A stretch of DNA of 64,000 nt from Candidatus Anstonellaceae archaeon (GTDB taxonomy: Archaea > Micrarchaeota > Micrarchaeia > Anstonellales > Anstonellaceae): positions 4,728-68,727 of the forward strand of contig JAWAEW010000004.1 in NCBI GenBank assembly GCA_038891035.1, read 5' to 3'. Positions 1,654 to 36,061 of the stretch are shown here, in pieces. The position numbers and the translations under genes were made by a program. The notes below the pieces were generated by a model that saw nothing but the letters and a program-made list of their open reading frames with translations, did no database searches and had not been told where the DNA came from. Position 1 is the first letter of the stretch. Every line of letters starts with the position of its first letter.

Positions 1654-1677
1654 GAAGAGAGGCAACTGAAGTTTGCC
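1654..1677 (+). repeat. 5' strand of the 23S rRNA processing helix
   Basis: gaagagaggcaactgaagtttgcc is the exact reverse complement of 4607-4630, giving 24 consecutive base pairs that enclose the 23S gene. Confidence 0.85.
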
Positions 1678-4606
1678 GGATATGCATGTTACGCCAATCA
1701 GTGGATGGCTAGGCTTCGGTAGTTTCACGGCCCCGTGGCAAGCTGCGAAAAGCTCCGGGTAGGAGCAGGCATCCTTTGATCCGGAGATCGGGCTGTGTGC
1801 CGAAAGGCACAGACTACCCCGGGAATTAAAACATTCTAGTACCGGGAGGAAAAGAAACCAATAGGGATTCGGTAAGTAAGGGTGACTGAAAGCCGAAAAG
1901 CGCAAACCGAATGCAGTGCGGCAACGCACTGTAGATGTGGGCGGAGCATCCGTTTCCAGATTCGAGGTCGGCTGGAAAGCCGCGCCATAGAGGGTGAAAG
2001 CCCCGTAGATTAATGGAGGCGGAGCGAAGCAAATAAGAGTAGTGCTCATCGAGTATTGGGCATGAAGATGGCGGGACTAACCGCCAACGCTAAATATAAC
2101 CGAAGACCGATAGCGAATTAGTAACGCGAGTGAACGCTGAAAAGGAGTCCGAAAGGACAGTTAAAAGAACCTGAAACTGATTGGTGACAGGTTGATGCAG
2201 CGTGGAAGGGCACGACTGCCAAAGCAACCAGCCGAGAGGCTGGAAGCGAGGCAGGCATACCAGCGTTGCATCGTTCTTCTCGAAGCAAGAGCCAGGGAGT
2301 TGATGTGGTGTGGCGAGGCGAGAGCCGAAGCGAAAGCGAGTGGGCGCATCGAAAGAAAGGCCCGTCGTCCGAAAGGGCGACCAGTCACACTCATCAGACC
2401 TGAAGCCGATGTGAACTAAGCGCGCGCAGGTCGAAGCCAGCCTGACGGCTGGTGGAGGACCGCAACCGGTGCTAGTATATTCTGCTCGGGTGACGTGCGC
2501 TTAGGGGTGATAGTCCAATCGAACTCGGCAATAGCGGGTTCCCCTCGAAATGTCCCTCAGGACAGCCTCGATGGAGGTTGGATGCGGGGTAGAGCACTGA
2601 TCGTAAGGATTGGCCCCGAAAGGGGTCGCCTTGCTGTCAAACTCCGAATCTGCATCCGCCGTAGAAGTCGGGAGTCGGGTTCCGCTGGGTAAGCTAGCGG
2701 GCCATTACGGGAACGACCGGTGCCGCAGTTAAGGTCCCTAAATTCAGGCTAAGTGCTAATCCACAAGGAGTGTCCGGTCTAAAACAGCTGGAAGGTAGGC
2801 TTAGAAGCAGCCATCCTTTAAACAACGCGTAATAGCGGACCAGTCTAGATCGCACATTCCGAAGATGATCGGGGCTAAGCCTGGTACCGAAACTGCGGAG
2901 TTGCCCCAAAAGGGCAATCTGGTAGGGGGGCGAGCTGGCTGGGCAGAAGCAGGGCCGTGAGGTCCTGTGGACTGGCCAGTTATGAATATCCTGGTATTAG
3001 TAACAGCATATCCAGGCGAGAATCCTGGACGCCGCATAGCACACGGGTTTCTGGGCAATGTTCTTCAGCTCAGAGTTAGGCGGTCCTAAGGCAATAGCTA
3101 ATTGCGAATTGCCGAAAGGGAAAACGGTTAAAATTCCGTTCCTGCACAGGTAGATGCGGCAACGCAAGTTGTGTTCCTGACGCTTTGGGGTAGGGGTGGG
3201 GGAGGAGACTTCCCTTAAAGCCCATAATGCCTTGGAGTCTCATTATGAGGAGAAGAGGCATAAAGGGCCCAAATCGTCCTGATCCCTGGAGCCCATGAAA
3301 AGGGAGCGCAACCGACCCTGTGCATCCGTACCTAGAACTATTACAGGTGCTGCTGGCAGAACAAGCCAAGGCGTGTCAGGGCAATTCAGCTAAGGGAACT
3401 CGGCAAGTTAGTGGCTTAACTTCGGGAGAAGCCATGCCTGCCTTTCCGCAAGGATTGGCAGGTCGCAGTGACAAGGGGAGGTCGACTGTTTACCAAAAAC
3501 ACAACTCGCAGCCAATCGGAAACGATTAGTACTGCGGGTGACGCCTGCTCACTACTGGTACGTGAAAGCCTGTTCCAACGGGCTTAAGCGCCAGCAAAGA
3601 GCGGGGGTAACTCTGACCCTCTTAAGGTAGCGTAATACCTCGCCGCTTAATTGGTGGCTTGCATGAAGGGCGTAACGAGCCTCCCACTGTCCCTAGCTGG
3701 AACCTGGTGAACTTACTACTCTGTGAGTATGCAGAGGACTTCTAGGGGGAAACGAAGACCCCGTGGAGCTTTACTATAGCCTGATCTTGTGATACGAGCG
3801 CTGCTGCGGAGCGTAAATGGGAGCCGCTATGTTGCACCTCTCGGGGTGCAAATAGGCGCCGTTGTAACACCATTCAGCAGTGCTTGTATTGCTCACCGCA
3901 AGGGACAGGGTCAGGTGGATAGTTTGGCTGGGGCGGTACGCCCTCGATAAGGAAAATGCGCATAACCAGTTTTTAGAGGAAGGTTAGCGCATCTTCAAAC
4001 AAGGGCGCCCAATGTTCAGCTTAGGCGGGTCAGAAATCCGCCGGTAAGGGTTAAAGACAAATGCTGGACTGACTGTATCCTTAAAAGCGTGGGATGCAGA
4101 GACGAAAGTCGGGCTTAACGAACCTTGGTGCCTTTTTAGTGAGGGCCCAAGCTGTCAGACAAGCTACCCCGGGGGTAACAGGCTCGTCGCGGGCGAGAGT
4201 ACACATCGACCCCGCGGTTTGGTACATCGCTGTCGGCTTAGGTCATCCTGGGGGTGCAGGAGCCCCCAAAGGTTGGGTTGTTCATCCATTAAAGACCTAC
4301 ATGAGCTGGGTTCAGAACGTCGCGAGACAGTTCGGTAGTATCTCCTAGGAGTGTTACCGTTTGAGAGGAAGAACCCATGAGTACGAGAGGAACTTGGGTT
4401 CGGCGCCTCTGGTCTACCGGTTGTGTCAAGCATCGCCGGGCAGCTACGCGCTATTGGATAAGACCTGAAAGCATCTAAGGTCGAAGCCAATCTCAAAACT
4501 AGACGGTGTAGGCGGTCATAGCAGATGACTTTGATAGGGCGGAGGTGTAAGTGGTTAGCTTACGCGAGCCATTCAGCCTGCCGCTACTAAAGCCGTTCAT
4601 GCTCAA
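1678..4606 (+). rRNA. rrl: 23S ribosomal RNA (mature ends lie a few to tens of nt inside these bounds)
   Basis: Conserved LSU blocks are present: ..gtggatggctaggcttcgg.., ..gaccgatagcgaattagtaacgcgag.., ..aagaccccgtggagctttac.., ..gggataacaggct-like ggggtaacaggctcg.., ..gagctgggttcagaacgtcg... The region is enclosed by a 24-bp flanking helix. All ORFs within it are spurious. Confidence 0.95.
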
Positions 4607-4630
4607 GGCAAACTTCAGTTGCCTCTCTTC
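4607..4630 (+). repeat. 3' strand of the 23S rRNA processing helix
   Basis: ggcaaacttcagttgcctctcttc is the perfect complement of 1654-1677. It overlaps the stop codon and last five codons of the convergent CDS 4615-9075. Confidence 0.85.
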
Positions 4631-7600
4631 TTGCTTTCTTCTTCTAACTTTTTCCAAGTTTCTTCTGTCCTTCTTTCAAGAGAGGGTCTCCACAGCTCAT
4701 TTCTTCTTTTTTCCAATTCATCTTTGATTTGTTGGCTGTGCGCATCTCTTTTCTCTTCCTTTATGCTGTTTATTTCCAATTTGAGAAATTCAATATTTTG
4801 TTCTATTTTAAGCTTTATTTTTTCAGCATCCTTTCTTTCATGTACAAACACATCAGTAACAGTTTTATAATCCGTCAGAAATGGGCTCCTTCCAACCCAA
4901 TACTGTGAAGTCTCAGCAAGCCTCTCATTTTCGTATGGTGTCCCTTTTCCAAAAATCAAATCTTTTTCACTCGGGGCAGTGTAAAGCTCATATTCTGCGT
5001 CTTTGACAATATCTATCAGTTTCGATATTCTGTTATAGTTTTGCGGAGTAGCGGCTCGAAGCTCTGAAGAAAGAGTGCCAACCACATTTTTCAACTCAGC
5101 TGCTTGCTGGGAAACTGCAGAAGAATACATTCCCTTCTTCATTCCTTCTTCAATATTTTTTTGAATAATTGAAAGCATCTCCTCATCATTCCTTTTCATA
5201 TTTTTCTCCCATATCTTCTCTTTTTCATCAACAGACATCTTTTTGTAGTCTTCCCACAAAATAGATTTATCCTCTTCTCCGTAAAGGCTGATGGTTGGCG
5301 GAATGCTTACCTTGCTGGTCAAAATAGCATTCTGCTTCTCAGCAAAACTCGTGTAAGGCCGAAGGTCTGATTTAAGTGCTTCCATGCTGTTTCGCATCTC
5401 TGTATTAAGAAGAATCAAGTCTTTGAACGGGTCCCAGCTTTTCTTATCCTCCCCCGGAACTTCTACTTGCTTTGTGACTTCTCTTGTTGCAGAAACAGTA
5501 ATTGCATAATCATTACCATATAGTGTCTGTCTTATCATGCTTGTTTTTGCATTCCTGAATGTGAAATAAATATTGTTCTCTTTGTACTCTTCCTTATTCA
5601 ATAAGTTTCGCAGATTCGTTTCATTTGTTTTAGATATGCCAATTGTTTTAACTTTACCTTCATCAACAAGAATTTGAATGTCCTTTATCTCATTTTTTAT
5701 CGTATCAAAGCTTATTTTTCCTTCATCCATCATTTTAATTAGATCTTGTCCGGTTTTTGCGATAAAATCAGGCCGCTCGATTTTTACCTTTGCACCCTCA
5801 TTCTCATAAATTTTGATTTGGTCATTTTCCTTAACTGCGACGTAAACCTTCCCTTCTTCCAATTGTACTCCGTCAAAAGTTTTTTCGCGCCCAGTAAAAA
5901 CAACCACTTTTCCACTGTTCAATATTTCGTTTACATTAAGTATTTTCATTTCACTTTCATCTTTTTTCTTATATTTTTCATAATACTTACTGATATCTAA
6001 CATTCTTTCAAGTCCATTCTGTGTGACAATCCCCACTTCTTTTCCTTTTATTTCATTGTTTAGTCCAGCATTATTTGCAACTTCAGTCATAAGAGCAAAG
6101 GAAAGAAGAAGATTATATTTCCATCCAAATGTTGCGCCATAATGTTCAGTTGGAACGCTTATCTTTATTACCACCTCTTTATTGTTGCTATCCTCTGCAG
6201 CATTTTTTATTTCAGTAAAAAGACCCGCATTTCTTGTACTTTCTACAAATTCTTTGATTTCTTTAGGATTTCTCAGAGTTGAAATATATTCACGTAGAAC
6301 ACTTTTAATTTCACTCGTAAAGGTTTCCGTTTTCGTTTCTAATTTCTTTTCCGCTCCCCCTCCTGTTTCTTTATAATGAATGGCATCAGCAACCAAACTT
6401 AAAGCTTCATTCAGATTTTTCTTTTGGTCTTCAAATTCTTGCTTTTGTTTATCTGACATATTTTCTACAAGTGAATCCACCCACATTATCCAATTTGAAT
6501 TCATTGCAATTTTTCCAATCTCACCCATTATTTTTTCAGCTTTTTCAACATTAATTTCTTGCCCGTATTTTTCTCTTAAATATGTGGTGGCATTGTAATA
6601 TTTAGAAAATTCTTCAGAATTTACTATGCCTTTTCGCATCTTCAAAGCAATTTCATAATCACAGTCTGCCAAATATACCATATTCTCTGCATATCTTTTT
6701 AGGTCATCAATCCACCCACTTAGTTTTTCACTCTCAATTAGATTTTTTGCCTCATTGAGCTGTTCTTGGCTGGCACCATATATCTTTTCTAGTAAAGAAA
6801 GCTCAAATTTAAGCTGCTCGACTTGCTCAGGATTATTTTTCATCTTTTCTTCATATTCAGCCTTAGCTTGCTCCAAAGCCTTTTTCCTCCCATCTTCGTT
6901 TATCTCCTGCGCTTTTGAAATATGATGTTCTAAGAATTTCATTCTCTGACCTACTTCAAGAAGATAAGCAACGCTTTCCACTCTTTCTTTTGCAGTCCTT
7001 TCAACAACAAATGCCGTTTTTATATCTTCGGCATTTCCTTGTCTGAGAGCCTTATAAGTGTCATGAAGGCTTTCTACATAGGCTGCCATAGCAGCAAGCA
7101 TTCTCTCGTCTGCGCCACCAATTGACAGTTTTGTGAAAATAGCCTGATTGTAGCGCCACCTGTTCTTTTGAAATTGGGCAACTTCTTTGTTGTCAGAAGA
7201 AAGAATAAGCTTATTCCCGCTGGCATCATATAACAAAAATCCTTCCTTACCACGTTTGTCCTTTTCCAATTGTTCGATTTCCTCTATCTTTCCATTCTTG
7301 TCAATCAATAGCCCTTTACCTCCTCTGGTTTCGATATACAAACATTCTTTTCCGTTCTTCTCAACAATATTTCCATATATGATAACCGTATCTTTACCTT
7401 TAGAATAAAGCACAGTCTCTACTTCAGCATTTATAAGTTGAATCGCATTTTGAAAGATATTCAACCCCAATGGAAGCCGCGCAGGCTCATTTATATATGC
7501 TGCAATAAGAAATGCATCCTTACCTATCAGATTTTCTATTTTCTTCACCAATTTTTCAATAAAATCTTCACTTCTGCTCTTATTCCTAAATGCCAGCCAC

Positions 7601-9075
7601 TCAAGAAAAATAGTAAAAAGTGTCTTTCTCCATTCATCAGATGAAAATGCTTTCAAATTTAACGATTCTCTCAAACCAAAAAGAAGTGCAGCTGCAACTC
7701 TTTTCAAAACTCCTGCGTTTTCACCTGCCCCAATAGATTCCATGAACTCTTTCATATCCTTTTCTAGTCTGTTAACTCTTTTTTGTTCTTCAGAACTGAG
7801 GCCCGTGAAAAAAAGTCGCACCGCTTCAAATATATCAGTTGCAGTTAAAGCTACAATTCCTGGCTTAGGGGGCAGTCGTTCGTCATCTTTGCTTCGTGTT
7901 TTTGATGGACCCTCACTTCCCTCTTTACCCTTACCTCCAACTTCAACTACTTGCTGCCTTTGAAGGGAATGTACTAAATTTTTATTTTGTAGTTTATTTT
8001 TTGAGTTTTCAATTTTTTTCTCCAATTCAACGATCCTTCCCTCTACTTTCTGTATTGTTGAATTCAGCTTTCCAAGGCTTCCTTTCAAATCATTTAGCTC
8101 TTTCTTTTCATTATTGGTCAGATTTTGTTTGCTTTCAAGCTCTCGAATCCTATTTTCAACTTTATTTTTCGTATTTTGGAGTTCAGAAAGAGTTTTTTTG
8201 CCTTCGTCCAACTTAATCTGTGTTTTGTTTAATTTTTCTGCATCGGTCAACCCGCCAGCTGCAAAGTACAAATACTGAGAACTTGTTTGCAAAAATTCCA
8301 TAGCCTTAGCAAGTACCTTTCCTATAAGCATGTTCAGCTGCCCAGTTATGCTGATTTTACCCCCACTGAACGTATCAGCCATCTTGTCGAAGCCGATTAT
8401 ATATTGGATTATATCAAAGCTTTTTTGCTGAACTCTCATTGAGTATTGTCTGCCTCTTCCCATTCGCGGAGCAGAAAAATCAAAGAAAGAAAATGGATTT
8501 CTTCCTGCTGCAAATGACGCCCCAAGAAGAAGAGAAAAAATCAGCATGAGAGGCCAGCAAAGAGGAGCCATATCCACAGAAGGCGTATTGCATATGTAAA
8601 ATTCGTTGTGAGAAGGCAAGTAGTTCAAATACTGAAGTGGTACCTTTCTCGTGCCGCATGGTGGAACAGCGGTATAGGTTTGAGGAATTGAGCTTAATCC
8701 GCTTTTGTTTAAGCATTCTTTCGTGTTTGCATCAACAGGACAAAAAATATACCAATAATCAATACATCTTTGGGCATTCGGATTGTATTCGTGTACAACT
8801 TTCCCTTCACTATCTGTCACATCATAGCATACACTAGGGTTAGTAGGCGGATCATTTTGCATTCCAGATAAGTTCACACGATACACAAGCGCATTTTGGA
8901 TTGGCATCTTGTCATAGTTTCCGCTTATATTGTAGACTTTGACAATTATCTTTCCATATGTTTCATCCACTACTATATCCATGTATGAAGGTGTTGGTGT
9001 GGGAGGGCAAATAGGAGAAGAGGTTGCAAAAGCAACCATTGCAACCAATAAAAGCCCAACAAACGCTCTCATCAC
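4615..9075 (-). CDS. giant (1486 aa) membrane-anchored coiled-coil protein; last gene of the envelope operon
   Basis: The N-terminal signal-like segment is MMRAFVGLLLVAMVAFATSS. It is followed by a roughly 150-aa Cys-containing ectodomain, then one TM at about aa 172-190 (LCWPLMLIFSLLLGASFAA) and a basic stretch (GRNPF..RMGRGRQ). About 1280 aa of K/E/N-rich, heptad-like sequence follows. No family recognised. Confidence 0.85.
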   Translation of the reverse strand: MMRAFVGLLLVAMVAFATSSPICPPTPTPSYMDIVVDETYGKIIVKVYNISGNYDKMPIQNALVYRVNLSGMQNDPPTNPSVCYDVTDSEGKVVHEYNPNAQRCIDYWYIFCPVDANTKECLNKSGLSSIPQTYTAVPPCGTRKVPLQYLNYLPSHNEFYICNTPSVDMAPLCWPLMLIFSLLLGASFAAGRNPFSFFDFSAPRMGRGRQYSMRVQQKSFDIIQYIIGFDKMADTFSGGKISITGQLNMLIGKVLAKAMEFLQTSSQYLYFAAGGLTDAEKLNKTQIKLDEGKKTLSELQNTKNKVENRIRELESKQNLTNNEKKELNDLKGSLGKLNSTIQKVEGRIVELEKKIENSKNKLQNKNLVHSLQRQQVVEVGGKGKEGSEGPSKTRSKDDERLPPKPGIVALTATDIFEAVRLFFTGLSSEEQKRVNRLEKDMKEFMESIGAGENAGVLKRVAAALLFGLRESLNLKAFSSDEWRKTLFTIFLEWLAFRNKSRSEDFIEKLVKKIENLIGKDAFLIAAYINEPARLPLGLNIFQNAIQLINAEVETVLYSKGKDTVIIYGNIVEKNGKECLYIETRGGKGLLIDKNGKIEEIEQLEKDKRGKEGFLLYDASGNKLILSSDNKEVAQFQKNRWRYNQAIFTKLSIGGADERMLAAMAAYVESLHDTYKALRQGNAEDIKTAFVVERTAKERVESVAYLLEVGQRMKFLEHHISKAQEINEDGRKKALEQAKAEYEEKMKNNPEQVEQLKFELSLLEKIYGASQEQLNEAKNLIESEKLSGWIDDLKRYAENMVYLADCDYEIALKMRKGIVNSEEFSKYYNATTYLREKYGQEINVEKAEKIMGEIGKIAMNSNWIMWVDSLVENMSDKQKQEFEDQKKNLNEALSLVADAIHYKETGGGAEKKLETKTETFTSEIKSVLREYISTLRNPKEIKEFVESTRNAGLFTEIKNAAEDSNNKEVVIKISVPTEHYGATFGWKYNLLLSFALMTEVANNAGLNNEIKGKEVGIVTQNGLERMLDISKYYEKYKKKDESEMKILNVNEILNSGKVVVFTGREKTFDGVQLEEGKVYVAVKENDQIKIYENEGAKVKIERPDFIAKTGQDLIKMMDEGKISFDTIKNEIKDIQILVDEGKVKTIGISKTNETNLRNLLNKEEYKENNIYFTFRNAKTSMIRQTLYGNDYAITVSATREVTKQVEVPGEDKKSWDPFKDLILLNTEMRNSMEALKSDLRPYTSFAEKQNAILTSKVSIPPTISLYGEEDKSILWEDYKKMSVDEKEKIWEKNMKRNDEEMLSIIQKNIEEGMKKGMYSSAVSQQAAELKNVVGTLSSELRAATPQNYNRISKLIDIVKDAEYELYTAPSEKDLIFGKGTPYENERLAETSQYWVGRSPFLTDYKTVTDVFVHERKDAEKIKLKIEQNIEFLKLEINSIKEEKRDAHSQQIKDELEKRRNELWRPSLERRTEETWKKLEEESKKRGN

Positions 9076-9084
9076 ATCCCAACC

Positions 9085-17407: not shown

Positions 17408-20400
17408 ATTATCCTACTCAGGCCAGGTATATCAATATCTCCCCCTAAGGTGGAGGATAATACCCTTACAAACGAAATTATCATAACAATAGAAAATAGT
17501 GGAAGAACAACCGCAGGAATCATCAAAACTCCAATATTTCTTACATCAACTGCCCCTGTTGCAGAGCCAGGCAATGAAAGCAGCAATTCATCTACACTTG
17601 CTGCCTCAGATGTAAGATCTTCTTGGCTACACACTTCAGCGCAATCAGTGCGCAAGGGTGGTTCATAAAGGCAATCATACGGGCAATCAAAGCATCCGTC
17701 ACAGATACGGGCTGGGACAGGCGACAAAGCACAACTTTGTTGCTGAGACGAACAGCTCACATAATTGCAATAGATTTCAGGCATAGGGTCTTGGTTGAGT
17801 CTCCTGCAGAGTACTGGGCAATCAAAATAAGGTAAAGAAGTTGGAATATAGCTTCTGCATTCTTGTGGTCCCCCTGACCTTTTGAGTGGAATGTCTACTC
17901 TACATTCGTTAGGGCAAGCGGCAAGGCTGCAGTCAACTTGTAAAGTCTTTATCTCCATATCCTTTATCCGCCAATTTTCTGGACACTGTTTGCATGAATC
18001 TATTTCGTTAAACGGATACTCTCGCTGTCCTATAGGTATGCGAACACTGCCTTTGTTTAACCATTCGCATTCTGTTCCTCTTGAGCGGCAATCTTCTTCT
18101 GAAGAAGCACCACCACACTCCCCGCTTGAGAAGTAATTTGATGTGTTATAACAACCCCACTCACCAATTAAGTCACGGTTTCCTAAATATTCACTACATA
18201 CTAATCCAGTTGCAGGGGGGATCTTTACTTTGCAAGAATCAGAGCAATTTTCAGATGCGCATCCCAAACTGCTGCACCATAAAGCAAGCAATCCACTCCT
18301 AGAATACCCATATTTGTCAGTTCCCTCAAATTTTATCCGGCATTCAATAGGACATTTGCGGCACTGCCCCATTTCTCCAGAGGCAAAGTCATAATCTTGA
18401 CATTCTGGATTGGTTTGGCTATTCGGAACTTGGATCACTCGTTTGCATGCATCACTGCAAGAAGAACAGTCTATAGTTTCTCCGTTTCTTTCAGCATAAA
18501 AGTTTGAGTTAAAAGCTGGCGGCCCAAAGTAATCAATATCCCCAGAAGAATTTTTATGTAAAAGCAGAATTCTTACTTCCTCTGGGCAATTCCTACAATA
18601 TTCTGCTTGTCTATCAAACATATTTGATATCCTGCAGGTGGGTGGAAACTTCTGAGGTCTGCATTGGTTTTGGCATGCAGACGCGGAGCAGTTAACTCCT
18701 TCGGCTGCGCATTCCACTGGAATCCCGCCTTCACGCTCAACTGCAGAATATTCGGTTATGAACGAATAATCGTTGAATCTGCACATTTCAGGACAATCTG
18801 TGCAATTTGTAGATATGTAATTTTTCTGAGGATAAGGATAGCATGCGGGAGTTTCATCAAAAAGAGGATTTGAAGGAATTTGGATTCTGCATTCCATTGG
18901 GCATTTGCTGCAGGCTTCTCTTATTTGCTGATTGTTGCTGCAATAATTTTGCATGAAGTTTTGAATGTCGTATTTATCAAGCTGGCTGCTCCAGTTTACT
19001 CTGCATGGTTTTGGGCAGGACCCGCATACAGATGGGCTTTCACAATCAAAGGTTTCGCCTATCTTGCTTACATAAGAGCATTCCAGCGGACATCTGTTGC
19101 ATGCATCGTTTGGAGCCTCTTTACAAAGTTTTTCATCTTTTCTTACAAGCTCCACACTACCGTCAGGATTCACTTTTTTAAGAAGACACCAATTTGGGCA
19201 GTCTTTGCATACAGTGCAATCTACTGTCAACTTTGCAGCTACTGCATTCCCATCAGATTTGACATAGCATTTGTTTTCAAATGGAATGCTGGCTTTGCAT
19301 CCTTCCTGACAAAGGCTGGTCGGGCATTTTGAAGCACAATCGGTTCTAATTCTCATTACTTTACATCCAGGATTGCACTGGGCACAAGCTACAGGGTCGC
19401 ATTTTGGCTTATTTCTTGGAAATGGAACCTCTCTGCATTCTTGGGGGCAACCGCTACAATCATTCTGAATACCATCCAACTCTTCACAAGCAACCAAGCC
19501 AGGAAATTCAGCTTTTCCATCTCCATTTATGTCCCCTGTCGCCCAATTGGTTGCATTTATGCCTGCACGCTTCAAATCTTCTTTCGTTTTGAAGAGTATC
19601 AGCCCTCCAGTTGTATTGTTTATATAAAATGCAACAGGTGGAGAAAGTTTGCACTCAGCAGGGCAATTTTCAGAGTCCTGCCCAACGCGCTCACCGTACA
19701 CACTGATTTGGAGAGTGTACCAAGCAAACGCATATGTTAAAGGATAAACTACGAATATCGAGATTCCTATCGCAAGCAATAGCCCACCTAATCTTCTTGA
19801 AAAGAAAAAGGTGCGAAGCAATATCCCTAAAAGTAGAAGTATCGGGGCAAGCGCAAAGGCAACCACATCTATAAAGTAGCGCTGTGCGTATATGCTTGCA
19901 AGCATCCTGGTTGCGTTCTCAAAAATTATTCCTGCCCTTTCTGCTTCAATTGACCGACCTGCATTTGGCCGGATAATCACGCCGGCATAAGCCATTAGGG
20001 CTATATTTGCAACTGTATTTACACCAAGGTTGGCAGCTTTTTGTTCTTTTATGCTTTTTTTCAGCGCATCCTGAGCATAGGTTGAACCTATCTTGTAAAT
20101 GCTGTCAAGATAAGTTTTGGCAGCAGTGATATAGCAAGGTTCTGCGCCACTACAAACTATAGGAAGATTGCTTGAAGCCACAACTGCACTTGAAATCTGG
20201 TCAAGGAAAATTATCACTCCGATTATGCTCAAAACTAATATTGCTGAAACAAATGCCTGTCCAAGTTCAATATCCACAAATGCCTTTATTTCATTTAAAT
20301 TGAATGCATAGCCAACCATCGCAGCAATCGCAATTAGAAGGATTGCAATCATCACTCCTGTCAACGCAGAAACCTTCCAATCTGAAAACCATCCAGCCTG

Positions 20401-20715
20401 ATATATCCCGCTTGTTTGCCCAATAGCACTTCCTTTTGTCCTGTTCCCTTCTTCAAGGGCAGTTATCATCTTGGTGATATTCTTCTGAGGTAGATAAGGC
20501 ACAGATGGCTGATATACATATTCCCATTCAGAAGGGAAAAGCTCACAAATAAGTGATGGTGGCTGGGTACATTTTCCTGAAGCCAAATCGCATATTAGAG
20601 GCGAAACGCAATCTGAATTCTGGTTGCATGGCTGTGCATATGAACTTGCAGCAGAAATTGCCGGCAAAACCAAAATGAAAATCAACAATTGCTTCATCAT
20701 ATCACTACACTGCAA
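17404..20715 (-). CDS. paralog 3 (1103 aa): polytopic membrane core with a ~680-aa CxxCPxxC-repeat insertion before the last TM
   Basis: Family motifs are AMVGYAFNLNEIKAFVDIELGQ, LAPILLLLGILLRTFFFSRRLGGLLLAIGISIFVVYP, and the tail TLGGDIDIPGLSRII. The Cys-rich insertion spans aa 351-1029. An alternative start, MMKQLL at 20700, would give a cleaner signal peptide. Confidence 0.85.
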   Translation of the reverse strand: MQCSDMMKQLLIFILVLPAISAASSYAQPCNQNSDCVSPLICDLASGKCTQPPSLICELFPSEWEYVYQPSVPYLPQKNITKMITALEEGNRTKGSAIGQTSGIYQAGWFSDWKVSALTGVMIAILLIAIAAMVGYAFNLNEIKAFVDIELGQAFVSAILVLSIIGVIIFLDQISSAVVASSNLPIVCSGAEPCYITAAKTYLDSIYKIGSTYAQDALKKSIKEQKAANLGVNTVANIALMAYAGVIIRPNAGRSIEAERAGIIFENATRMLASIYAQRYFIDVVAFALAPILLLLGILLRTFFFSRRLGGLLLAIGISIFVVYPLTYAFAWYTLQISVYGERVGQDSENCPAECKLSPPVAFYINNTTGGLILFKTKEDLKRAGINATNWATGDINGDGKAEFPGLVACEELDGIQNDCSGCPQECREVPFPRNKPKCDPVACAQCNPGCKVMRIRTDCASKCPTSLCQEGCKASIPFENKCYVKSDGNAVAAKLTVDCTVCKDCPNWCLLKKVNPDGSVELVRKDEKLCKEAPNDACNRCPLECSYVSKIGETFDCESPSVCGSCPKPCRVNWSSQLDKYDIQNFMQNYCSNNQQIREACSKCPMECRIQIPSNPLFDETPACYPYPQKNYISTNCTDCPEMCRFNDYSFITEYSAVEREGGIPVECAAEGVNCSASACQNQCRPQKFPPTCRISNMFDRQAEYCRNCPEEVRILLLHKNSSGDIDYFGPPAFNSNFYAERNGETIDCSSCSDACKRVIQVPNSQTNPECQDYDFASGEMGQCRKCPIECRIKFEGTDKYGYSRSGLLALWCSSLGCASENCSDSCKVKIPPATGLVCSEYLGNRDLIGEWGCYNTSNYFSSGECGGASSEEDCRSRGTECEWLNKGSVRIPIGQREYPFNEIDSCKQCPENWRIKDMEIKTLQVDCSLAACPNECRVDIPLKRSGGPQECRSYIPTSLPYFDCPVLCRRLNQDPMPEIYCNYVSCSSQQQSCALSPVPARICDGCFDCPYDCLYEPPLRTDCAEVCSQEDLTSEAASVDELLLSLPGSATGAVDVRNIGVLMIPAVVLPLFSIVMIISFVRVLSSTLGGDIDIPGLSRII

Positions 20716-21628
20716 TTGTCCTTAAAGCTTTAGAGATAGCATTCACACATGTTATCAGCACCACCAACACAAGATTTGGGATGAAAATTGCCTGCGGTAA
20801 AGTGGAGGAGAGCCGATAAAGAAGACTATCTTTGCCAGTTCCATCTCCAAAAGCTTGTCTGTCTTCAAACGAATGTCCTGCAATCTGATATGGATTTTGC
20901 ATGATTTTCGCATATGTATACGCGCTTAAAGCATAAACCGAAGGAACAATTATGTATAGCCCGAAAAAAAGCGCAATCAAAATATTGCCATATTCGCGAG
21001 TCATTGGAAATATCCTCATGACAAACGCAAATGGCAAAAGCACAGCAGCACCTACAAACTCCACCATTGAAAGGAGATATTTTTGTGCATTTAGGCTTGC
21101 GATTATCGGAATATAAAGATCTATTAGAAATTCTTTATGTGATGAAATTGCTCTCCACGCGGCCATATGCGCCATTCCATAACCTTGATAAGGAGTAAAT
21201 CCTACGAAAAGATAAGCAGTTGCATCAAGCTGATTGCCATAGCTGGAATAGACTAGCTCTCGCACTATCGCAAGCCCATTATTTACAAGCAAAGAATTTA
21301 TGTACGCATATGAAGCTTCGAATGGGCTTTTGCCGATGTATTCCACTGCCAAGCGGCAAGACCCTGTGAAAAATGCAAGCAAGCCGACAAGCAGTATAAC
21401 GGTAACTAGCAAATTCTGCGATTCATCCTTTGCATATGTTTCAGCCTTTATATTGTGCGCAAGCTTGCCATACATGTAAGCAATGCTTATCACAAGAGAT
21501 GCAAGCGCAAGTGCATAACCTATGAATGGGAGAGCATCAGGATGGAAATTGCTTATCTCACATACATCTGCATAATCGGCTGCAGCAACAGCAGGCACAA
21601 GCAATGCTACAATAAAAACAACATTCAT
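20705..21628 (-). CDS. paralog 2 (307 aa) of the polytopic membrane family (most divergent, tail motif degenerate)
   Basis: Has YMYGKLAHNIKAETYAKDESQ and LLPFAFVMRIFPMTREYGNILIALFFGLYIIVP. The C-terminus AISKALRTIAV lacks the LGGD motif. Confidence 0.8.
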   Translation of the reverse strand: MNVVFIVALLVPAVAAADYADVCEISNFHPDALPFIGYALALASLVISIAYMYGKLAHNIKAETYAKDESQNLLVTVILLVGLLAFFTGSCRLAVEYIGKSPFEASYAYINSLLVNNGLAIVRELVYSSYGNQLDATAYLFVGFTPYQGYGMAHMAAWRAISSHKEFLIDLYIPIIASLNAQKYLLSMVEFVGAAVLLPFAFVMRIFPMTREYGNILIALFFGLYIIVPSVYALSAYTYAKIMQNPYQIAGHSFEDRQAFGDGTGKDSLLYRLSSTLPQAIFIPNLVLVVLITCVNAISKALRTIAV

Positions 21629-21630
21629 TT

Positions 21631-22911
21631 TTACACCAATTTGCTTAAGCCATAAAGCTGCGGCTCTCCTCCAAAATAAATTATGAAATTCCTTGCTGCA
21701 ACCACCCCTATTATTATGGGAAGCAAGGAGAAAACTAAAGCAAGCACTCCATAAATGCTTGTTGCTGGAAGAGCATACTCTGTTACGTTGGCTATGGCTG
21801 CATCAATATCAACATAACTATAAAGTGAAAGAAAGGGATACATCATCATGCTAAAGCCTGCCTTTGCAATAGCAAATACATTCCTTACATCGGCCCAGCA
21901 TTGAGTTAGTGGATAACCTGTAGTCACCTGAAGCACAGGGCATATCAACAAAGCCCATCCGTTTTCCCCACTTAGAATAACCCCTCCAAATCCCCCAACC
22001 AAGCTTCCGATCGACCCACCAACACTGGAAGATATAGCAGACACCACAACTCCAAGAGGGCTTTGGATGAAGGATTGCATTACAGGGTCACATACAAAAT
22101 TTGTAAGTGGTGGATTTCTAATGTCTGGCAACACATTAATCCCTTCTATGTATTGTACAATCTGCGGGGAAAAAGTGGCATAGATTTCATGAGAAATTGC
22201 AAACGAGGCAGGATAAATCACAGAAGCCGCAATTGAAGCCCCTAAAATAGTCCCACCTATCTTTCTTGTGAGTGAAAAGCACCGCAAAAAGATACCCACG
22301 GGCAAAAAGATTGCGGCAGTATTGACAAAGAAGATTACAAATGATTTTTGCGCAGACAAAAACAAGAGATAGTTTGCAATTCCATCCATTGCAAAGCCTA
22401 ATTCTGCAATCAATGGTGCAAATCCTGCACCAGGGGTCTGAGTAAAGCTTGTGCTTACTAAATGGAGATTCAACCCGGCAGTATAAGTATATGAAGCATA
22501 TCTTGCGACATTGAAATAAGCTGTCGCAAGCTTAAGATAAAGGGCCCTTCCATCCTCTCTTATTTTTGCAATGGCATCCAAGGCGTACTGCCCTGCACCC
22601 ATCTGTTTGCCTGAAAGAAAACTTGCCGCAGCATCCGCACTTGCAATCATTCCAACACAAAATACTGCAATCAGAACTCCTGCGAAAAGTTCCTGAAGCT
22701 CTACTTTGGTCCATGCTTCAAGCAGCCTAAGCTCAAAAAAAGAACCTACCATATATGTGATCCCAATAAACGAAGCCGCAATAAGCACTGAAAGTCCAGT
22801 CCAATAGTAAACCTCTGCCTGCCACCCAGAAGCGCTTGCAAAATTTGCCAATATAAGCAAAGAAGCCGCAATTTTTGCCAAACTAGGCAGCAGCCTTTGC
22901 ATATTCGTCAT
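21631..22911 (-). CDS. paralog 1 (426 aa) of the polytopic membrane family; first gene of the operon
   Basis: Has YMVGSFFELRLLEAWTKVELQ, FLPVGIFLRCFSLTRKIGGTILGASIAASVIYP, and the tail YFGGEPQLYGLSKLV. The alternative ATG at 22902 (MQRLLPS..) lies about 28 nt from the TATA-like box and may be a leaderless start. Confidence 0.8.
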   Translation of the reverse strand: MTNMQRLLPSLAKIAASLLILANFASASGWQAEVYYWTGLSVLIAASFIGITYMVGSFFELRLLEAWTKVELQELFAGVLIAVFCVGMIASADAAASFLSGKQMGAGQYALDAIAKIREDGRALYLKLATAYFNVARYASYTYTAGLNLHLVSTSFTQTPGAGFAPLIAELGFAMDGIANYLLFLSAQKSFVIFFVNTAAIFLPVGIFLRCFSLTRKIGGTILGASIAASVIYPASFAISHEIYATFSPQIVQYIEGINVLPDIRNPPLTNFVCDPVMQSFIQSPLGVVVSAISSSVGGSIGSLVGGFGGVILSGENGWALLICPVLQVTTGYPLTQCWADVRNVFAIAKAGFSMMMYPFLSLYSYVDIDAAIANVTEYALPATSIYGVLALVFSLLPIIIGVVAARNFIIYFGGEPQLYGLSKLV

Positions 22912-22914: not shown

Positions 22915-22970
22915 TCTTTTATTTTTATAAAGAGGTATGCTCTCAAATGCCTGTTATTTTAAAATTAGGC
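22915..22970. promoter_or_regulatory. divergent promoter region with two A/T-rich TATA-like boxes
   Basis: ttatttttataaag (22919-22932) and ttattttaaaatt (about 22955-22967) lie between the envelope operon (-) and map (+). Confidence 0.4.
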
Positions 22971-25622: not shown

Positions 25623-25754
25623 CGGGCCCGACGGGAGTTTCAGCCAAACCTTTGGCTTTTGAACCCGCAGCCTTCTGGTGGCACCTGCCACACCCAGCCC
25701 ATTTGCCGGGCGCATTCGAAGCCAGACGCGCTATCCAGGTTGCGCCACAGGCCC
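25623..25754 (-). tRNA. tRNA-Arg (anticodon UCG) with two putative introns (36 nt at 37/38 and 21 nt in the T-loop)
   Basis: Minus-strand sense is GGGCCUG-UG-GCGC-AACCUGGAUA-GCGC-G-UCUGG-CUUCGA[36 nt]A-CCAGA-AGGCU-GCGGG-UUCAAA[21 nt]U-CCCGU-CGGGCCC-G. The acceptor pairs at 7/7 positions including one G-U. On the + strand the introns lie at about 25680-25715 and 25637-25657. A TATA-like box sits at 25777-25786. Confidence 0.8.
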
Positions 25755-28693: not shown

Positions 28694-29670
28694 AGCACCT
28701 TTATTGTATTGCCTTCAATTATAATATTTCTTCCTGTCATCTGCTCAATTACATAACGGTTTGTCAAAAGGTGCTGGGTTGCCTGCGCAGCTGAAAAGCT
28801 GCTTTTCCCCTCTGCCAAAGCGGCATAAAGTAGAAGCTGGTCTGCAAGATGCCAATCCACACATGCATTGCCTTTGTACTGTTGCTCAAACTCTCTGCAC
28901 ACCTCCAAAGCCACCTCCTCAGCCATCTTTCCCTTTTTTCCTATTGAGCAGCTTCCGATAAACCCTTTCCACATAGTAACTGCATTGCCGGCACAATCTG
29001 CTGCAACCTGCATTATTTTTCCCGAAGGGGAAAGGTAGCCCAGTTGCTTCCTAATAATTGCCTGCTCTCTTTCTGCAACGTGTGGAGGAAGCCCAAAATA
29101 AACTATCTCATATCTTAATGGCTCTTCAACCTTCTGCATTATGCAGCCGTGAAGCTTGGAAGGCAGGGTTTTCAGATGAATCTTACCCCCACCAGTTGGA
29201 TAAAAGCCTGCTTTTTTAAGCTGAATTTCAAATTTTGCACCAAACATGGAGGCAGCTTTTGCAAAAATCTCTGCCAAATACTCAAAAGTTGGGGCACCCT
29301 GCACATGAGTCCCACCAATAACTTCTAAGGTGCATTCTTCCTCAGCATGCAAAAGAACAGGAAGCGCAGCTTGCACAAGAAGGGAGCATGATCCCGCAGT
29401 GCCAATCTCTACCTTAAAGCTTCCTGAAGCTATCTTCCCTGGAATAAATTCAAGATATTTGGAGCCTATTTCTGCTCCTTTTATTTTTGCTCTACAAACT
29501 TTTGCAAGCAGGTTGCATGCTGCCAGATGTTGATAGGAAAGGCCAGGATTTTTTCTGCCTGCACGTATGTTTGTTATTTTAATTGGTGTGCCTAAAATGC
29601 AAGATATCGAAAGTGCAGTCCGAAGCACCTGGCCTCCGCCTTCTCCATAAGAGCCGTCTATTTCAATCAC
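28690..29670 (-). CDS. rtcA: RNA 3'-terminal phosphate cyclase
   Basis: MIEIDGSYGEGGGQVLRTALSIS..ITNIRAGRKNPGL..HL.. matches the RtcA N-terminal signature. Confidence 0.9.
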   Translation of the reverse strand: MIEIDGSYGEGGGQVLRTALSISCILGTPIKITNIRAGRKNPGLSYQHLAACNLLAKVCRAKIKGAEIGSKYLEFIPGKIASGSFKVEIGTAGSCSLLVQAALPVLLHAEEECTLEVIGGTHVQGAPTFEYLAEIFAKAASMFGAKFEIQLKKAGFYPTGGGKIHLKTLPSKLHGCIMQKVEEPLRYEIVYFGLPPHVAEREQAIIRKQLGYLSPSGKIMQVAADCAGNAVTMWKGFIGSCSIGKKGKMAEEVALEVCREFEQQYKGNACVDWHLADQLLLYAALAEGKSSFSAAQATQHLLTNRYVIEQMTGRNIIIEGNTIKVL

Positions 29671-30914
29671 ATTTTGATTTTCCCAAGAAGGACTTTTATT
29701 TCATATACTAGACCAAAAAGCACAAGCAAAACTAGCCCGCCAACTGCTGCAAATCCTTCAACCCTCCATTTTCCTTTTGCTGCAGGATATGCGGCAGGTG
29801 ACACAGAATCATTCCCAAAGCGAATGCTGACCGCCTTTCTGTTTTGATCGTCTTGGAAGGGCGCAGGTTCACGCACAGAAATCGTGCTTTCAAATGCAAA
29901 CATATCAGAAAATAGACTTTCATACAAAACAACTGCTTTCTTTTTGCCCACCTCTTGCTTGATTGAGGCAGATGCTTCCATGACCAGATAAGCTGCAGGA
30001 AGATCAACCAGCTGGCTTGCATACATTTCAGACAAATTCACCAAGCTCATATTTTGCCCATAAAATACTGGCCTGGCCTCAAGCTCGGCCTGTTTGCATC
30101 TGCCTTGCTTGTAATCAATTTCATAAGCAGTAAAATTTGCGACAGTCTTGCCATTTATCATAAATGCAACAGAGGCAGGCATCCTCCTTGCAAAAAATAA
30201 CCATTCAAGCTGCTGGCTTGCATTAGTCATTTTTTGCAATGGCGGGTTTACCCAAAACCACTCTACAGGGCCGGTTTCGACCCAAATTTCCTTTTCATCT
30301 GAATGCCGCTTGCGGTATGTTAGCACCCCATCAGTAGAATGCGCCTTGCAAATGCAGGTCGAAGGGCACTCAAAGAAGTATTCAAGTTTTAAGTATCTAT
30401 ATTCCGCCTCTATCGCCCCTGAAAGGTGCAATCTGAGCGGCTCGAAAATCATACTCTGCAAATGCATCGGCCTGCCCAGTTCAAGCTGGACAGGGTTTGG
30501 ACCAGCCATCCCAAGAATTGCCTGTCTGGTTTGGTTTCCATATTCATAAAAAAGCACCCCGTCAGAAAATCTTGGCTGCCCCTCTGCCCAAAGGTGTAGC
30601 TTGCCAGCAGGGCAACCTTCCGAAGAAGGAATTTCAAATTCTGCATATGTGGGATAATGTGCAAACCAGCTCCAGAGTACCTTTGGCCGATGCAAGTCTG
30701 AGGTAAGATTGCCTATCTGAGGCATAACTGCAACTATTTTTACTCCAGAAATATACGAAAGATCTTGTGGGGTCGGGCTTTTTTCAGGCAACATGCAAGG
30801 GTTTTCTGCACCAAGAAGGGTTTCTGCTATTTGAAGATTTTGCTTTTCTGCCTCCTGGATTGGGTGAAGGCAAAAGCCCAAACCAACCAAAACAAAAAAT
30901 GCCCAGGTTTTCAT
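29667..30914 (-). CDS. hypothetical secreted protein with C-terminal TM anchor (415 aa)
   Basis: Signal peptide MKTWAFFVLVGLGFCL and C-terminal TM AAVGGLVLLVLFGLVY. ATGA-coupled on both sides. Confidence 0.7.
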   Translation of the reverse strand: MKTWAFFVLVGLGFCLHPIQEAEKQNLQIAETLLGAENPCMLPEKSPTPQDLSYISGVKIVAVMPQIGNLTSDLHRPKVLWSWFAHYPTYAEFEIPSSEGCPAGKLHLWAEGQPRFSDGVLFYEYGNQTRQAILGMAGPNPVQLELGRPMHLQSMIFEPLRLHLSGAIEAEYRYLKLEYFFECPSTCICKAHSTDGVLTYRKRHSDEKEIWVETGPVEWFWVNPPLQKMTNASQQLEWLFFARRMPASVAFMINGKTVANFTAYEIDYKQGRCKQAELEARPVFYGQNMSLVNLSEMYASQLVDLPAAYLVMEASASIKQEVGKKKAVVLYESLFSDMFAFESTISVREPAPFQDDQNRKAVSIRFGNDSVSPAAYPAAKGKWRVEGFAAVGGLVLLVLFGLVYEIKVLLGKIKM

Positions 30915-32797: not shown

Positions 32798-34188
32798 GTT
32801 GCCACTTTCCATACAGTGATTCCATCTTTTCGATCTTCGATTAAAATTCCCTTTTCCTGCAGGCTTCTCCTTATGGAATCTGCTAATGCAAAATCCTTCC
32901 TTTTGCGGGCTTCATCACGCTGGCGAAGGAGCCTTTCAATCTCTTCTGCAGGTATGGGAAGCCTGCTTTCTTTTGGCTGCAAGCCCAGCACCCCAAGCAG
33001 CTTTTCCAGAGTGGCTGCTGCAGATAATGCATCCATTTTGCCTGCAGTGGAATCTGAGCAGGCCGCATTTATTTTCCTTGCAAGCATGAAAAGCGCTGCC
33101 ATTGCATTTGGAGTATCAAAATCATCATCCATATGCTCTACAAATTTGCGCTCAGTCTCAAGTGCGGCTTCAGAAAGTCTTGCAGTGCCGGTTGGCGGAA
33201 GGGGGTAAGATTTTGCAGAGCGGATTGCCTGATGCAAATTTTCAAGGGAGTTGGAAGCAGACAAAATTGCCTGTCGCGAGAAGTCAATCGGACTTCTGTA
33301 ATGGGTGAGCGCAAAAAACATCCTTATTGCTTGTGGGCCGAACTCTGCCAGCGCATCCTGAATAGTGATAAAATTGCCCAATGATTTTGCCATTTTTTCT
33401 CCATTTACCGTGAGAAAGCCAGTATGAAGCCAATATCTTACAAATTTTTTTCCAGTTGCAGCCTCGGATTGGGCTATTTCATTTTCATGGTGAGGAAAAA
33501 CCAAATCTCGAGCGCCGCCATGAATATCCAAGGTTTCGCCCAAGCAGGAGATGCTCATCGCTGAGCATTCTATATGCCAGCCAGGCCTTCCAGCCCCCCA
33601 CGGAGAATCAAAAGTGGCCCCTTTTTCCTGTCCAAATTTCCAAAGTGCAAAATCTTGGGGATTCCTTTTTTCCTCATCAATTTCAACCCTCGCGCCTGCC
33701 TTTATCTGTTCCATATTCTGCCCAGAAAGAGAGCCATAGCCTTCAAACTTCATCACATCAAAATACACTCCAGAGGAAGTCTGATAGGCAAAGCCATTTT
33801 GCATTATCTTTTCTATCAGTGAAATTATCTGCGGAATATACTGGCTTACTTTTGGGGAGAAGTCTGGCTTTTTTATTCCCAGAGCTTCAAATTCTTGCTC
33901 AGATTGCGAATTGAACATAAAGGCAAGCTCAAGAGGCGCCATCCCCATTTCCTTTGCGCGGTTTATTATTTTGTCATCTATATCAGTTACGTTTTGCACG
34001 TAAGTGACTTTATACCCCCTAAACTCAAGGTATCTTCTTATGTTGTCAAAAGCTACCAGCGTCCTTGCATGCCCAAGATGGCTTCTATCGTACGGCGTAA
34101 TACCACAAACATACATTTTTACCTTATTTTTTTCTTGTGGAACAAACTCTTCCTTAGATTTCGTCAAAGTGTTGTATATCCTCACCAA
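32794..34188 (-). CDS. cysS: cysteinyl-tRNA synthetase
   Basis: HIGH-type motif (SHLGHAR), KMSKS-type motif (KMAKSLGN), and WHIECS zinc site. Confidence 0.95.
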   Translation of the reverse strand: MVRIYNTLTKSKEEFVPQEKNKVKMYVCGITPYDRSHLGHARTLVAFDNIRRYLEFRGYKVTYVQNVTDIDDKIINRAKEMGMAPLELAFMFNSQSEQEFEALGIKKPDFSPKVSQYIPQIISLIEKIMQNGFAYQTSSGVYFDVMKFEGYGSLSGQNMEQIKAGARVEIDEEKRNPQDFALWKFGQEKGATFDSPWGAGRPGWHIECSAMSISCLGETLDIHGGARDLVFPHHENEIAQSEAATGKKFVRYWLHTGFLTVNGEKMAKSLGNFITIQDALAEFGPQAIRMFFALTHYRSPIDFSRQAILSASNSLENLHQAIRSAKSYPLPPTGTARLSEAALETERKFVEHMDDDFDTPNAMAALFMLARKINAACSDSTAGKMDALSAAATLEKLLGVLGLQPKESRLPIPAEEIERLLRQRDEARKRKDFALADSIRRSLQEKGILIEDRKDGITVWKVAT

Positions 34189-36038: not shown

Positions 36039-36061
36039 TTGATTTTTCACGAAATACACTT

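Follow-up and report, generated by a model that had tools for sequence, protein, structure and literature searches.

What is the function of a large block of eight genes that lies among the housekeeping genes of a Micrarchaeota genome and matches no curated protein family? The question is raised by contig JAWAEW010000004.1 of a Candidatus Anstonellaceae archaeon (assembly GCA_038891035.1), of which a stretch of 64,000 nucleotides was analysed (positions 4,728 to 68,727 of the forward strand, hereafter called the window; all coordinates below are those of the window unless another locus is named). We called the genes P1 to P8. Tentatively, and with somewhat less than even confidence, we propose that their products assemble into one hetero-oligomeric complex of the cytoplasmic membrane with a VirB6/CedA/CedE-like core, which might serve as a conduit and contact platform for exchange between cells. 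The complex has been found so far in Micrarchaeota alone.

Eight packed genes without a curated family

Eight minus-strand open reading frames (ORFs) follow each other end to end between positions 4615 and 22911. A first-pass annotation of this DNA had listed the junctions from P1/P2 to P7/P8 as a 2-nt gap, an 11-nt overlap, three ATGA overlaps, a 0-nt gap and a 9-nt gap, which matches the ORF coordinates and lengths exactly. According to the ORF listing the block spans 18.3 kb, or 29% of the window, in line with the 'more than a quarter' announced there, and the genes around it are indeed largely housekeeping genes, coding for an M24 peptidase, KsgA, DUF655, Rpb4, TBP, RNA cyclase, CysRS, aIF2/IF-2, AspRS, thiolase and HMG-CoA synthase. 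The GC content of the block (0.36-0.44) is broadly similar to the background of the window. The eight genes are as follows, with TM standing for transmembrane segment.

21631-22911, minus strand: P1, 426 aa (423 aa in the database copy)
20705-21628, minus strand: P2, 307 aa, a minimal core paralog without decorating ectodomain, with a positional ortholog in all loci
17404-20715, minus strand: P3, 1103 aa, core paralog
15584-17407, minus strand: P4, 607 aa, core paralog
14256-15587, minus strand: P5, 443 aa, core paralog
13153-14259, minus strand: P6, 368 aa, core paralog, whose TM3-loop-TM4 hairpin (residues 208-269) is the source of a sub-threshold match to CedE
9085-13152, minus strand: P7, 1355 aa, secreted, with 65 Cys
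4615-9075, minus strand: P8, 1486 aa, bitopic

Scans of P1 to P8 against Pfam, NCBIfam and PHROGs yielded nothing at the curated cut-offs, with no matches at all in PHROGs. Sequence searches of the PDB with P7, P8 and two family profiles (A2 and A5) returned chance-level matches only, such as a segment of an aldo-keto reductase or TolQ (E ~0.2). The absence of a recognisable family, claimed at first pass, thus holds at curated thresholds; below them, it has to be amended by a reproducible link to CedA/CedE and by weak fold matches to VirB6/TrbL, as described below.

P1 to P6 share a five-helix membrane core

Pairwise BLASTP comparisons of P1 to P6 gave 22-33% identity, with E-values down to 2e-11, and the six proteins share a common architecture and common motifs. 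They are therefore ancient paralogs of one five-TM protein, which bears out the earlier description of six polytopic paralogs. Alignments (A1 and A3) revealed a common N-terminal plan composed of a signal peptide, an optional Cys-rich ectodomain, TM1, a short loop with an invariant Glu, and TM2. About 110 extracytoplasmic residues follow, then TM3, the motif L-R-x-F-P-x-T-R-x-x-G-G, and TM4, which ends in an invariant Pro. The C-terminal part consists of a second optional ectodomain after TM4, TM5 and a tail with the sequence L-G-G-E-x-D-L-x-G-L-x-R-x-I.

The topology was deduced from hydropathy analysis, from the partitioning of Cys residues and N-glycosylation sequons, and from the basic character of the TM3-TM4 loops. 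Both positions of the optional ectodomains are on the same side of the membrane, and nearly all Cys residues are found there. N-x-S/T sequons are two to three times denser in the ectodomains (1.25-2.0 per 100 aa) than in the C-terminal tail of P8 (0.54 per 100 aa), and the arginines are located in the short loops. Because Cys residues and sequons fall on one side and arginines in the short loops, P1 to P6 are predicted to be five-TM proteins of N-out/C-in topology. The most conserved parts of the family are then its sole cytoplasm-facing parts, namely the TM1-TM2 loop, the TM3-TM4 loop (R..P.TR..GG) and the tail (LGGE.DL.GL.R.I).

P1 harbours a signal peptide and five TMs, with an additional helical domain inserted between TM4 and TM5, and its C-terminal tail reads FGGEPQLYGLSKLV. 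Its AlphaFold2 model, built from 48 sequences, has a predicted local distance difference test score (pLDDT) of 88 and a predicted template modelling score (pTM) of 0.75. In this model, long helices leave the membrane from TM2, TM3 and TM4 and, together with a beta-hairpin (residues 143-158), form an extracellular helical stalk. Each of the six paralogs has an outward-pointing helical stalk between TM2 and TM3. The model agrees with the N-out/C-in topology and with a large extracytoplasmic loop after TM2.

Cys-rich ectodomains of P3, P4 and P5

The Cys residues of the operon are concentrated in P3 (83), P4 (46), P5 (21) and P7 (65). P3 has a short Cys-rich module at its N terminus and a Cys-rich ectodomain of ~720 residues inserted between TM4 and TM5.

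17551-19695, minus strand: P3 ectodomain (residues 341-1055), containing 75 Cys and, according to a motif scan, ten or more CxxCPxxC[R/K]-type motifs

P4 carries an N-terminal ectodomain of ~275 residues made of knottin-like cystine modules, and P5 has one short N-terminal module of the same kind. Two instances of the knottin spacing C-x(3-7)-C-x(3-7)-CC-x(2-5)-C-x(3-10)-C were found in P4 and one in P5. Pfam matches to these regions are under cut-off (Conotoxin_I2, 22.3 vs 27 bits; UPF0506, 17.9 vs 23.2 bits). P4 has sub-threshold matches to Conotoxin_I2 and Dickkopf_N, and one of its orthologs a faint match to Toxin_12. Whole-protein lengths range across species from 748 to 1582 aa for P3, from 319 to 920 aa for P4 and from 305 to 1078 aa for P5. 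The TM core and the cytoplasmic motifs are conserved despite these widely varying ectodomains. Since topology, Cys content and sequon enrichment agree, the Cys-rich modules are predicted to face outward, as had been proposed at first pass.

P7, a secreted Cys-rich protein, and P8, a bitopic protein

The signal peptide of P7 ends in an invariant, lipobox-like Gly16-Cys17, and the protein has no further TM segment. We found 11 homologs of P7, all in Micrarchaeota. The model of residues 18-1200 is mostly of low confidence (pLDDT 46.6); residues ~885-1090 reach pLDDT values of 65-80, with alternating strands and helices.

9733-10755, minus strand: beta/alpha region of P7 (residues ~800-1140), of which the central part (~887-1087) is moderately confident in the AlphaFold2 model

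Foldseek searches with this region placed TIM-barrel glycosidases of glycoside hydrolase (GH) families GH53, GH26, GH2 and GH10 at the top, with E-values from 1e-3 to 1e-2. The module is thus a probable (beta/alpha)8-barrel-like domain on the basis of its model. The 12 aligned P7 homologs have no invariant pair of Glu that might correspond to the catalytic glutamates of clan GH-A. Among the conserved acidic residues, invariance is limited to D1005; D998 comes close to it, and E1029 is present in 9 of the 12 sequences. Pfam gave no GH match for P7, nor a match of any other kind. Because of the missing glutamate pair we call the module TIM-barrel-like and assign no activity to it. P7 was also considered as a candidate surface-layer (S-layer) protein and rejected: its composition, with 65 Cys, is the wrong one, and it has neither an S-layer domain such as PF05123 nor the low sulfur-amino-acid content of archaeal S-layer proteins.

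P8 has 12 detectable homologs, all in Micrarchaeota, and comprises two very different parts.

8356-9075, minus strand: conserved module of P8 (residues 1-240)
4615-8355, minus strand: cytoplasmic tail of P8 (residues 241-1486), K/E-rich, almost Cys-free and fast-evolving

The conserved module includes a signal peptide, an ectodomain of ~150 residues in which Cys positions are conserved, and a TM (~172-190) followed by the basic juxtamembrane motif GRNPF..FDFSAPRM.RGRQY.MRVQQKSFD. Conservation is confined to this module, and in one distant relative (locus L025, see below) just the TM and juxtamembrane segment (residues 150-238) can be recognised. The length of whole P8 proteins varies from 1107 to 2026 aa among relatives. 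The first-pass annotation had depicted P8 as a small ectodomain, one TM and about 1280 residues of coiled-coil-like sequence on the other side of the membrane. The small ectodomain, the single TM and the large cytoplasmic tail stand, and the extent of coiled coil was overstated: ~94 residues of the tail pass a crude heptad/charge test, one clear coiled coil is found at ~286-368, and much of the rest looks mixed alpha/beta. A motif scan found no Walker A or B motif or P-loop in P8, and the idea that it might be a hidden ATPase was discarded on that ground.

The gene order is conserved in Micrarchaeota

The order of the eight genes was examined by scanning one genome per GTDB species with the P6 alignment, which gave 15 loci, all from Micrarchaeota, Micrarchaeia or Anstonellaceae, and by classifying every ORF in these loci against the eight proteins of the window. 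About ten Micrarchaeota species have the genes in the order P1-P2-P3-P4-P5-P6-P7-P8, which is complete on every contig of sufficient length, and the best match of each classified ORF is its positional counterpart. Strict order and one-to-one orthology were found in loci L009-L012, L014, L015, L017, L019 and L023. Two loci are more distant, L024 from Candidatus Gugararchaeum adminiculabundum and L025 from assembly GCA_043821365.1, and both have P1 to P6 in the same order with one-to-one correspondence. In L025, P7 follows P6, and a P8-like gene is present divergently upstream; the L024 sequence ends shortly after P6. Gene order, which the first-pass annotation had singled out as worth checking, is thus kept in every relative examined.

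Selection was assessed against the 96-98% identical locus L009 (JAWAKW010000001.1, Candidatus Anstonellaceae archaeon). The ratio of nonsynonymous to synonymous substitution rates (dN/dS) is 0.07-0.33 for each of the eight genes, all of which are under purifying selection. With their order conserved in many genomes, these values establish that P1 to P8 are real genes rather than chance ORFs. The synonymous divergence, dS, forms a mosaic along the operon (4615-22911 compared with L009:1879-20178), with values of 0.18-0.24 for P1, P2 and P7 and of 0.03-0.08 for P3-P6 and P8. This variation between genes from 0.03 to 0.24 suggests recombination between strains inside the cluster.

The housekeeping neighbours upstream (M24 peptidase, KsgA, DUF655, Rpb4, TBP) are identical in several species. 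Downstream of P8, at the place of the 23S rRNA gene of the window, locus L005 has a gene-free stretch that contains a LAGLIDADG endonuclease gene and looks like the same 23S neighbour. Because the flanking housekeeping genes are syntenic, we conclude that the cluster is a core chromosomal feature and not an island. No relatives turned up when the IMG/VR viral contigs were scanned with the P1 family.

An exhaustive HMMER search with a profile of the six-paralog core collected 2,824 representative proteins at E<=1e-3, of which 1,814 at E<=1e-10. All members with an organism name are from Micrarchaeota or from an unclassified 'uncultured archaeon'. P1 has 68 homologs, all in Micrarchaeota. The proteins are named 'hypothetical' or 'uncharacterised protein' only, with no functional name among the members seen, and we found no description of the cluster in the literature.

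Two variations of the locus were observed. On the metagenomic contig L006 (491-4454), a HepT/MNT toxin-antitoxin pair and AAA_14/DUF4143 ATPase genes precede P6-P7-P8, instead of P1-P5. As unrelated genes replace P1-P5 there, the operon can be split or interrupted at the P5/P6 boundary. In six related species, an ORF of 112-118 codons on the same strand directly precedes P1 (L001:9563-9919, L003:9611-9949 and equivalents in L013, L014, L015 and L023). Its product has an N-terminal CxxC motif and two C-terminal TM helices and no family match. Searches found no such ORF in the window, in L009 or in L012, in which P1 and the M24 peptidase gene are just 81 nt apart. The small protein is possibly a ninth component, either dispensable or relocated.

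Faint resemblance of the core to CedE, CedA and VirB6

VirB6 proteins have a periplasmic N terminus, five TMs, a large extracytoplasmic loop after TM2 and a cytoplasmic C terminus. The layout predicted for P1 to P6 is of this type, with at least five TMs, the N terminus outside, a large extracytoplasmic loop after TM2 and the C terminus in the cytoplasm. At the sequence level, the NCBIfam model of the DNA-translocating protein CedE matches P6 of the window with an E-value of 2e-3. Of 56 diverse family members, five match the CedE model (best E 4.2e-5) and one more that of CedA, while other NCBIfam families match at most two members each. Among the P6 orthologs, 4 of 10 match CedE and 1 of 10 matches CedA, and the TM3-loop-TM4 hairpin always falls on CedE positions ~125-198. 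When these ten sequences were reversed, neither CedE nor CedA matched. Both CedA and its five-TM paralog CedE are structurally homologous to VirB6 (PMC11868833; PMC9905601).

Structure comparisons point weakly in the same direction. Foldseek searches with the P1 model retrieved R388 TrwI/VirB6 from the PDB (7o3v_G) at rank 13 (E 0.13, probability 0.84, TM-scores, i.e. template modelling scores, 0.26/0.35) and a phage protein annotated as TrbL from BFVD at rank 4 (E 0.12). In our estimation the chances that the P1-P6 core truly belongs to the VirB6/CedA superfamily are roughly even.

A proposed conduit and contact platform, and its alternatives

In the complex that we propose, six paralogs in fixed positions would form a hetero-oligomeric ring or channel. 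P3 to P5 would decorate its outer face with disulfide-rich modules, i.e. knottin-like units and CxxCPxxC repeats. P7 would be outside the cell, probably lipid-anchored through its invariant Gly-Cys, with its TIM-barrel-like module possibly binding glycans; together with the ectodomains it would make up a disulfide-stabilised outer crown. P8 would dock via its conserved module (ectodomain, TM and juxtamembrane segment) and connect the complex with the cell interior by means of a long and variable tail. The cytoplasmic motifs shared by P1 to P6 may bind a common partner, either the juxtamembrane segment of P8 or a factor encoded elsewhere. The job of such a complex would be that of a trans-membrane conduit and contact platform, with DNA or other macromolecules as cargo, and its energy, if any, would come from a factor encoded elsewhere. 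This job is proposed from the likeness of the core to VirB6, CedA and CedE, subunits of DNA-transfer channels derived from type IV secretion systems (T4SSs), above any other known family.

Several observations weigh against a VirB6/CedA-type conduit. None of the links to VirB6 or CedA reaches significance. The CedE and CedA scores, 13-18 bits, compare with cut-offs of 400 for CedE (NF053657) and 330 for CedA (NF041796). One reversed control gave an unrelated match at E 5e-4, so single matches at that level carry no weight alone. Pfam TrbL (PF04610) is absent from the families that match the 56 members at E<=1, and hhalign comparisons with R388 TrwI alone and with an 11-sequence alignment of proteobacterial VirB6 proteins gave probabilities <3%. 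Foldseek searches of P1 against PDB and BFVD yielded nothing at E<0.01, the VirB6/TrbL matches being at E 0.12-0.13, and in the PDB both TTYH2 and AhlB, with TM-scores of 0.15-0.26, rank above TrwI. Neither a VirB4/CedB-type ATPase, a Walker motif, a VirB2-like pilin nor a relaxase was detected in the operon, in the 64-kb window or in the cluster neighbourhoods of the other genomes; the ATPase scan covered the eight proteins, 30 larger flanking ORFs of the window and the neighbourhoods elsewhere. Looking for small proteins with two hydrophobic helices, as expected of such pilins, we found none in the window; in the six relatives concerned, the 112-118-aa CxxC protein with its two TM helices is a candidate without family match. 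The earlier report that no ATPase, pilin, S-layer domain or secretion component can be detected is therefore upheld by our scans. The hetero-oligomeric platform imagined in the first-pass annotation fits a co-inherited unit in which each paralog is kept as its own ortholog.

The same annotation had also invoked an attachment or exchange structure in a host-dependent archaeon. Host dependence is not secured: the closest genomes belong to the Anstonellaceae, and the order Anstonellales, according to a comparative study of 2025, is one of the less host-dependent groups of Micrarchaeota (PMC12892359). Attachment or exchange stays something that we infer.

The likeness to CedA and VirB6 might also be a mere convergence of five-TM helical-hairpin topology. 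The operon would then encode a hitherto entirely undescribed trans-envelope machine specific to Micrarchaeota, with the six paralogs arranged as a pseudo-sixfold ring, their identical tail motifs docking a cytoplasmic partner, and a disulfide-armoured crown of knottin, CxxCP-repeat and P7 modules used for cell contact or uptake. We regard this as a serious possibility, if on balance a doubtful one.

An envelope scaffold devoid of transport activity appears unlikely, without being far-fetched. P1 to P6 would act as pillars in the membrane, their stalks and Cys-rich modules reaching across the pseudo-periplasm to anchor or space the surface layer, with P7 as a surface coat and P8 tying the envelope to the cytoplasm. 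The long extracellular helical bundle of the P1 model and large exodomains rich in glycosylation sequons and disulfides would suit this role, as would the lack of an energising ATPase in the operon, the window and the neighbourhoods, and a constitutive-looking chromosomal site among housekeeping genes with conserved synteny. In addition, the paper on the S-layer of Micrarchaeum remarks that an S-layer protein with a cleaved signal peptide might need a second protein with a TM stalk (10.1101/2021.04.28.441871). Nevertheless, anchoring would hardly seem to require six distinct five-TM proteins whose cytoplasmic loops and tails are so highly conserved, and a scaffold leaves the recurrent CedE/CedA signal unexplained.

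It is less probable still that the operon encodes a new kind of channel or transporter whose substrates are small solutes, ions or lipids, with P1 to P6 forming the permeation path and P7 and P8 in accessory or regulatory roles. TTYH2, which gives the best Foldseek E-values for P1, has the same N-out/C-in five-TM topology with an extracellular helical bundle, but its TM-scores are just 0.15 at E ~0.01. The invariant Glu at the start of TM2, the two Arg of the TM3-TM4 loop and the invariant Pro in TM4 are features in keeping with a permeation path, and archaea with reduced genomes need uptake systems. However, no transporter family of Pfam or NCBIfam recurs among the 56 members, and giant Cys-rich exodomains and a 1,300-aa cytoplasmic tail would be unusual for a solute channel.

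Finally, a large unannotated gene block whose core is faintly similar to conjugation-type channel proteins could be imagined to belong to a mobile element, i.e. a conjugative element, a provirus or a defence island, but this origin is highly improbable and effectively refuted by the conserved housekeeping synteny, the same flanks being found in several species (M24 peptidase, KsgA, DUF655, Rpb4 and TBP on one side, the 23S gene or a gene-free gap downstream), with a GC content in line with the window, no integrase or relaxase present, no relatives in IMG/VR and no PHROGs matches.

Expression signals and other features of the window

A putative promoter was identified upstream of P1 by reading the sequence.

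22922-22931, minus strand: TATA-box-like element TTTATAAAAA, ~25 nt upstream of Met4 of P1

The position of TTTATAAAAA relative to Met4 fits the spacing between TATA box and start site in archaea. Because of this element and of the 423-aa database copy, P1 is probably translated from Met4 (22902) on a leaderless mRNA. TTTATAAAAA is likely the single promoter of the operon and would give rise to a leaderless transcript. The 11-nt overlap between P2 and P3 rests on a TTG start of P3; an ATG five codons downstream would replace it by a 4-nt gap. P8 may start at a GTG or at the ATG that forms its second codon. GGTG, GAGG or AGGT motifs precede P2, P5, P7 and P8 and would fit a CCUCC 3' end of the 16S rRNA. 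A scan for bacterial promoters and terminators is not applicable to an archaeon; its counts did not exceed the shuffled expectation.

The window is archaeal, with unlinked 23S (1677-4609, plus strand) and 16S (58570-60183, minus strand) rRNA genes, which are ~54 kb apart on opposite strands. The 16S match extends over 1614 nt for a model of 1478 positions, which corresponds to ~130 nt of insertion. At 25623-25754 (minus strand), an Rfam tRNA match spans 132 nt (41 bits) without an ARAGORN call and is probably an intron-containing archaeal tRNA.

Two further groups of uncharacterised genes were noted. Three large consecutive ORFs (1454, 846 and 772 aa) at 35720-44986 (plus strand), devoid of signal peptides and TM segments, have no Pfam or PADLOC match. 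This stretch has a GC content of 0.33-0.35 vs ~0.43 and abuts tRNA-Ala (45002-45075); it may be a horizontally acquired island. At 29667-32812 (minus strand), two unannotated membrane or secreted proteins of 415 and 633 aa, with no Pfam match, are encoded between the RNA cyclase and CysRS genes. As ORFs matching in size and position are present in L001 and L003, these proteins appear to be another conserved pair of uncharacterised proteins.

Significance

We consider the operon a genuine and non-trivial finding whose functional interpretation is unproven. The molecular basis of envelope building and of exchange with partner cells is largely undescribed in Micrarchaeota and other DPANN archaea. 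The commitment of ~18 kb by organisms with small genomes (the contigs carrying the operon reach about 0.8 Mb), the housekeeping setting and the conservation in every relative examined argue for a central role. Should the core prove to be a diverged channel of the VirB6/CedA type, T4SS-derived conduits would extend to DPANN archaea, and the operon would show that a six-paralog, ATPase-less arrangement exists in nature. A core without relation to VirB6/CedA would represent a new class of envelope machine. In addition, archaeal examples are added to the knottin-like and CxxCPxxC-repeat surface modules, and the six membrane subunits, P7 and P8 are supplied as concrete targets.

Comparison with known systems

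Like P7, the S-layer protein of Micrarchaeota (SLP_Mh, PF05123) is a large, secreted protein rich in glycosylation sites, and it comes from the same phylum. The two are nevertheless different proteins, P7 having no PF05123 match (10.1101/2021.04.28.441871). The closest match to the alternating beta/alpha module of P7 is clan GH-A, which comprises the GH53 galactanases and other TIM-barrel glycosidases. Enzymes of this clan have two catalytic glutamates, without invariant counterparts in P7.

For the P1 model, the best Foldseek E-value was obtained with TTYH2 (0.012), a five-TM, N-out/C-in protein with an extracellular helical bundle made of TM-helix extensions. TTYH proteins are a eukaryotic family with no sequence similarity to P1, and the TM-score is 0.15. 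Comparison of the models thus indicates that the likeness is most likely a structural analogy only.

The bacterial VirB6/TrbL proteins (R388 TrwI, PDB 7o3v) have the same overall topology as that predicted for P1 to P6. Proteobacterial VirB6 proteins and the P1-P6 family have no profile-level similarity, their Foldseek TM-scores are 0.24-0.35, and no other T4SS component is present here. In the Rickettsiales, the Rvh T4SS includes several adjacent, enlarged VirB6 paralogs. By analogy, this tandem would be the nearest architectural precedent for the six-paralog array.

Among archaeal proteins, CedA and CedE of the Ced system of Sulfolobales and TedA of Thermoproteales are polytopic and VirB6-like, and CedE has five TMs like P1 to P6. 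Ced and Ted loci encode a VirB4-like ATPase (CedB/TedB) and a VirB2-like pilin (CedA1/TedC), in contrast with the operon described here, which has neither and is seen in Micrarchaeota alone, not in Crenarchaeota. Compared with Ced and Ted, this operon has six paralogs, giant Cys-rich ectodomains, a lipobox-like secreted Cys-rich protein and a bitopic scaffold. A hetero-oligomer of CedA and CedE has been proposed (PMC11868833), which is paralleled by the presence of several paralogs in the Micrarchaeota operon.

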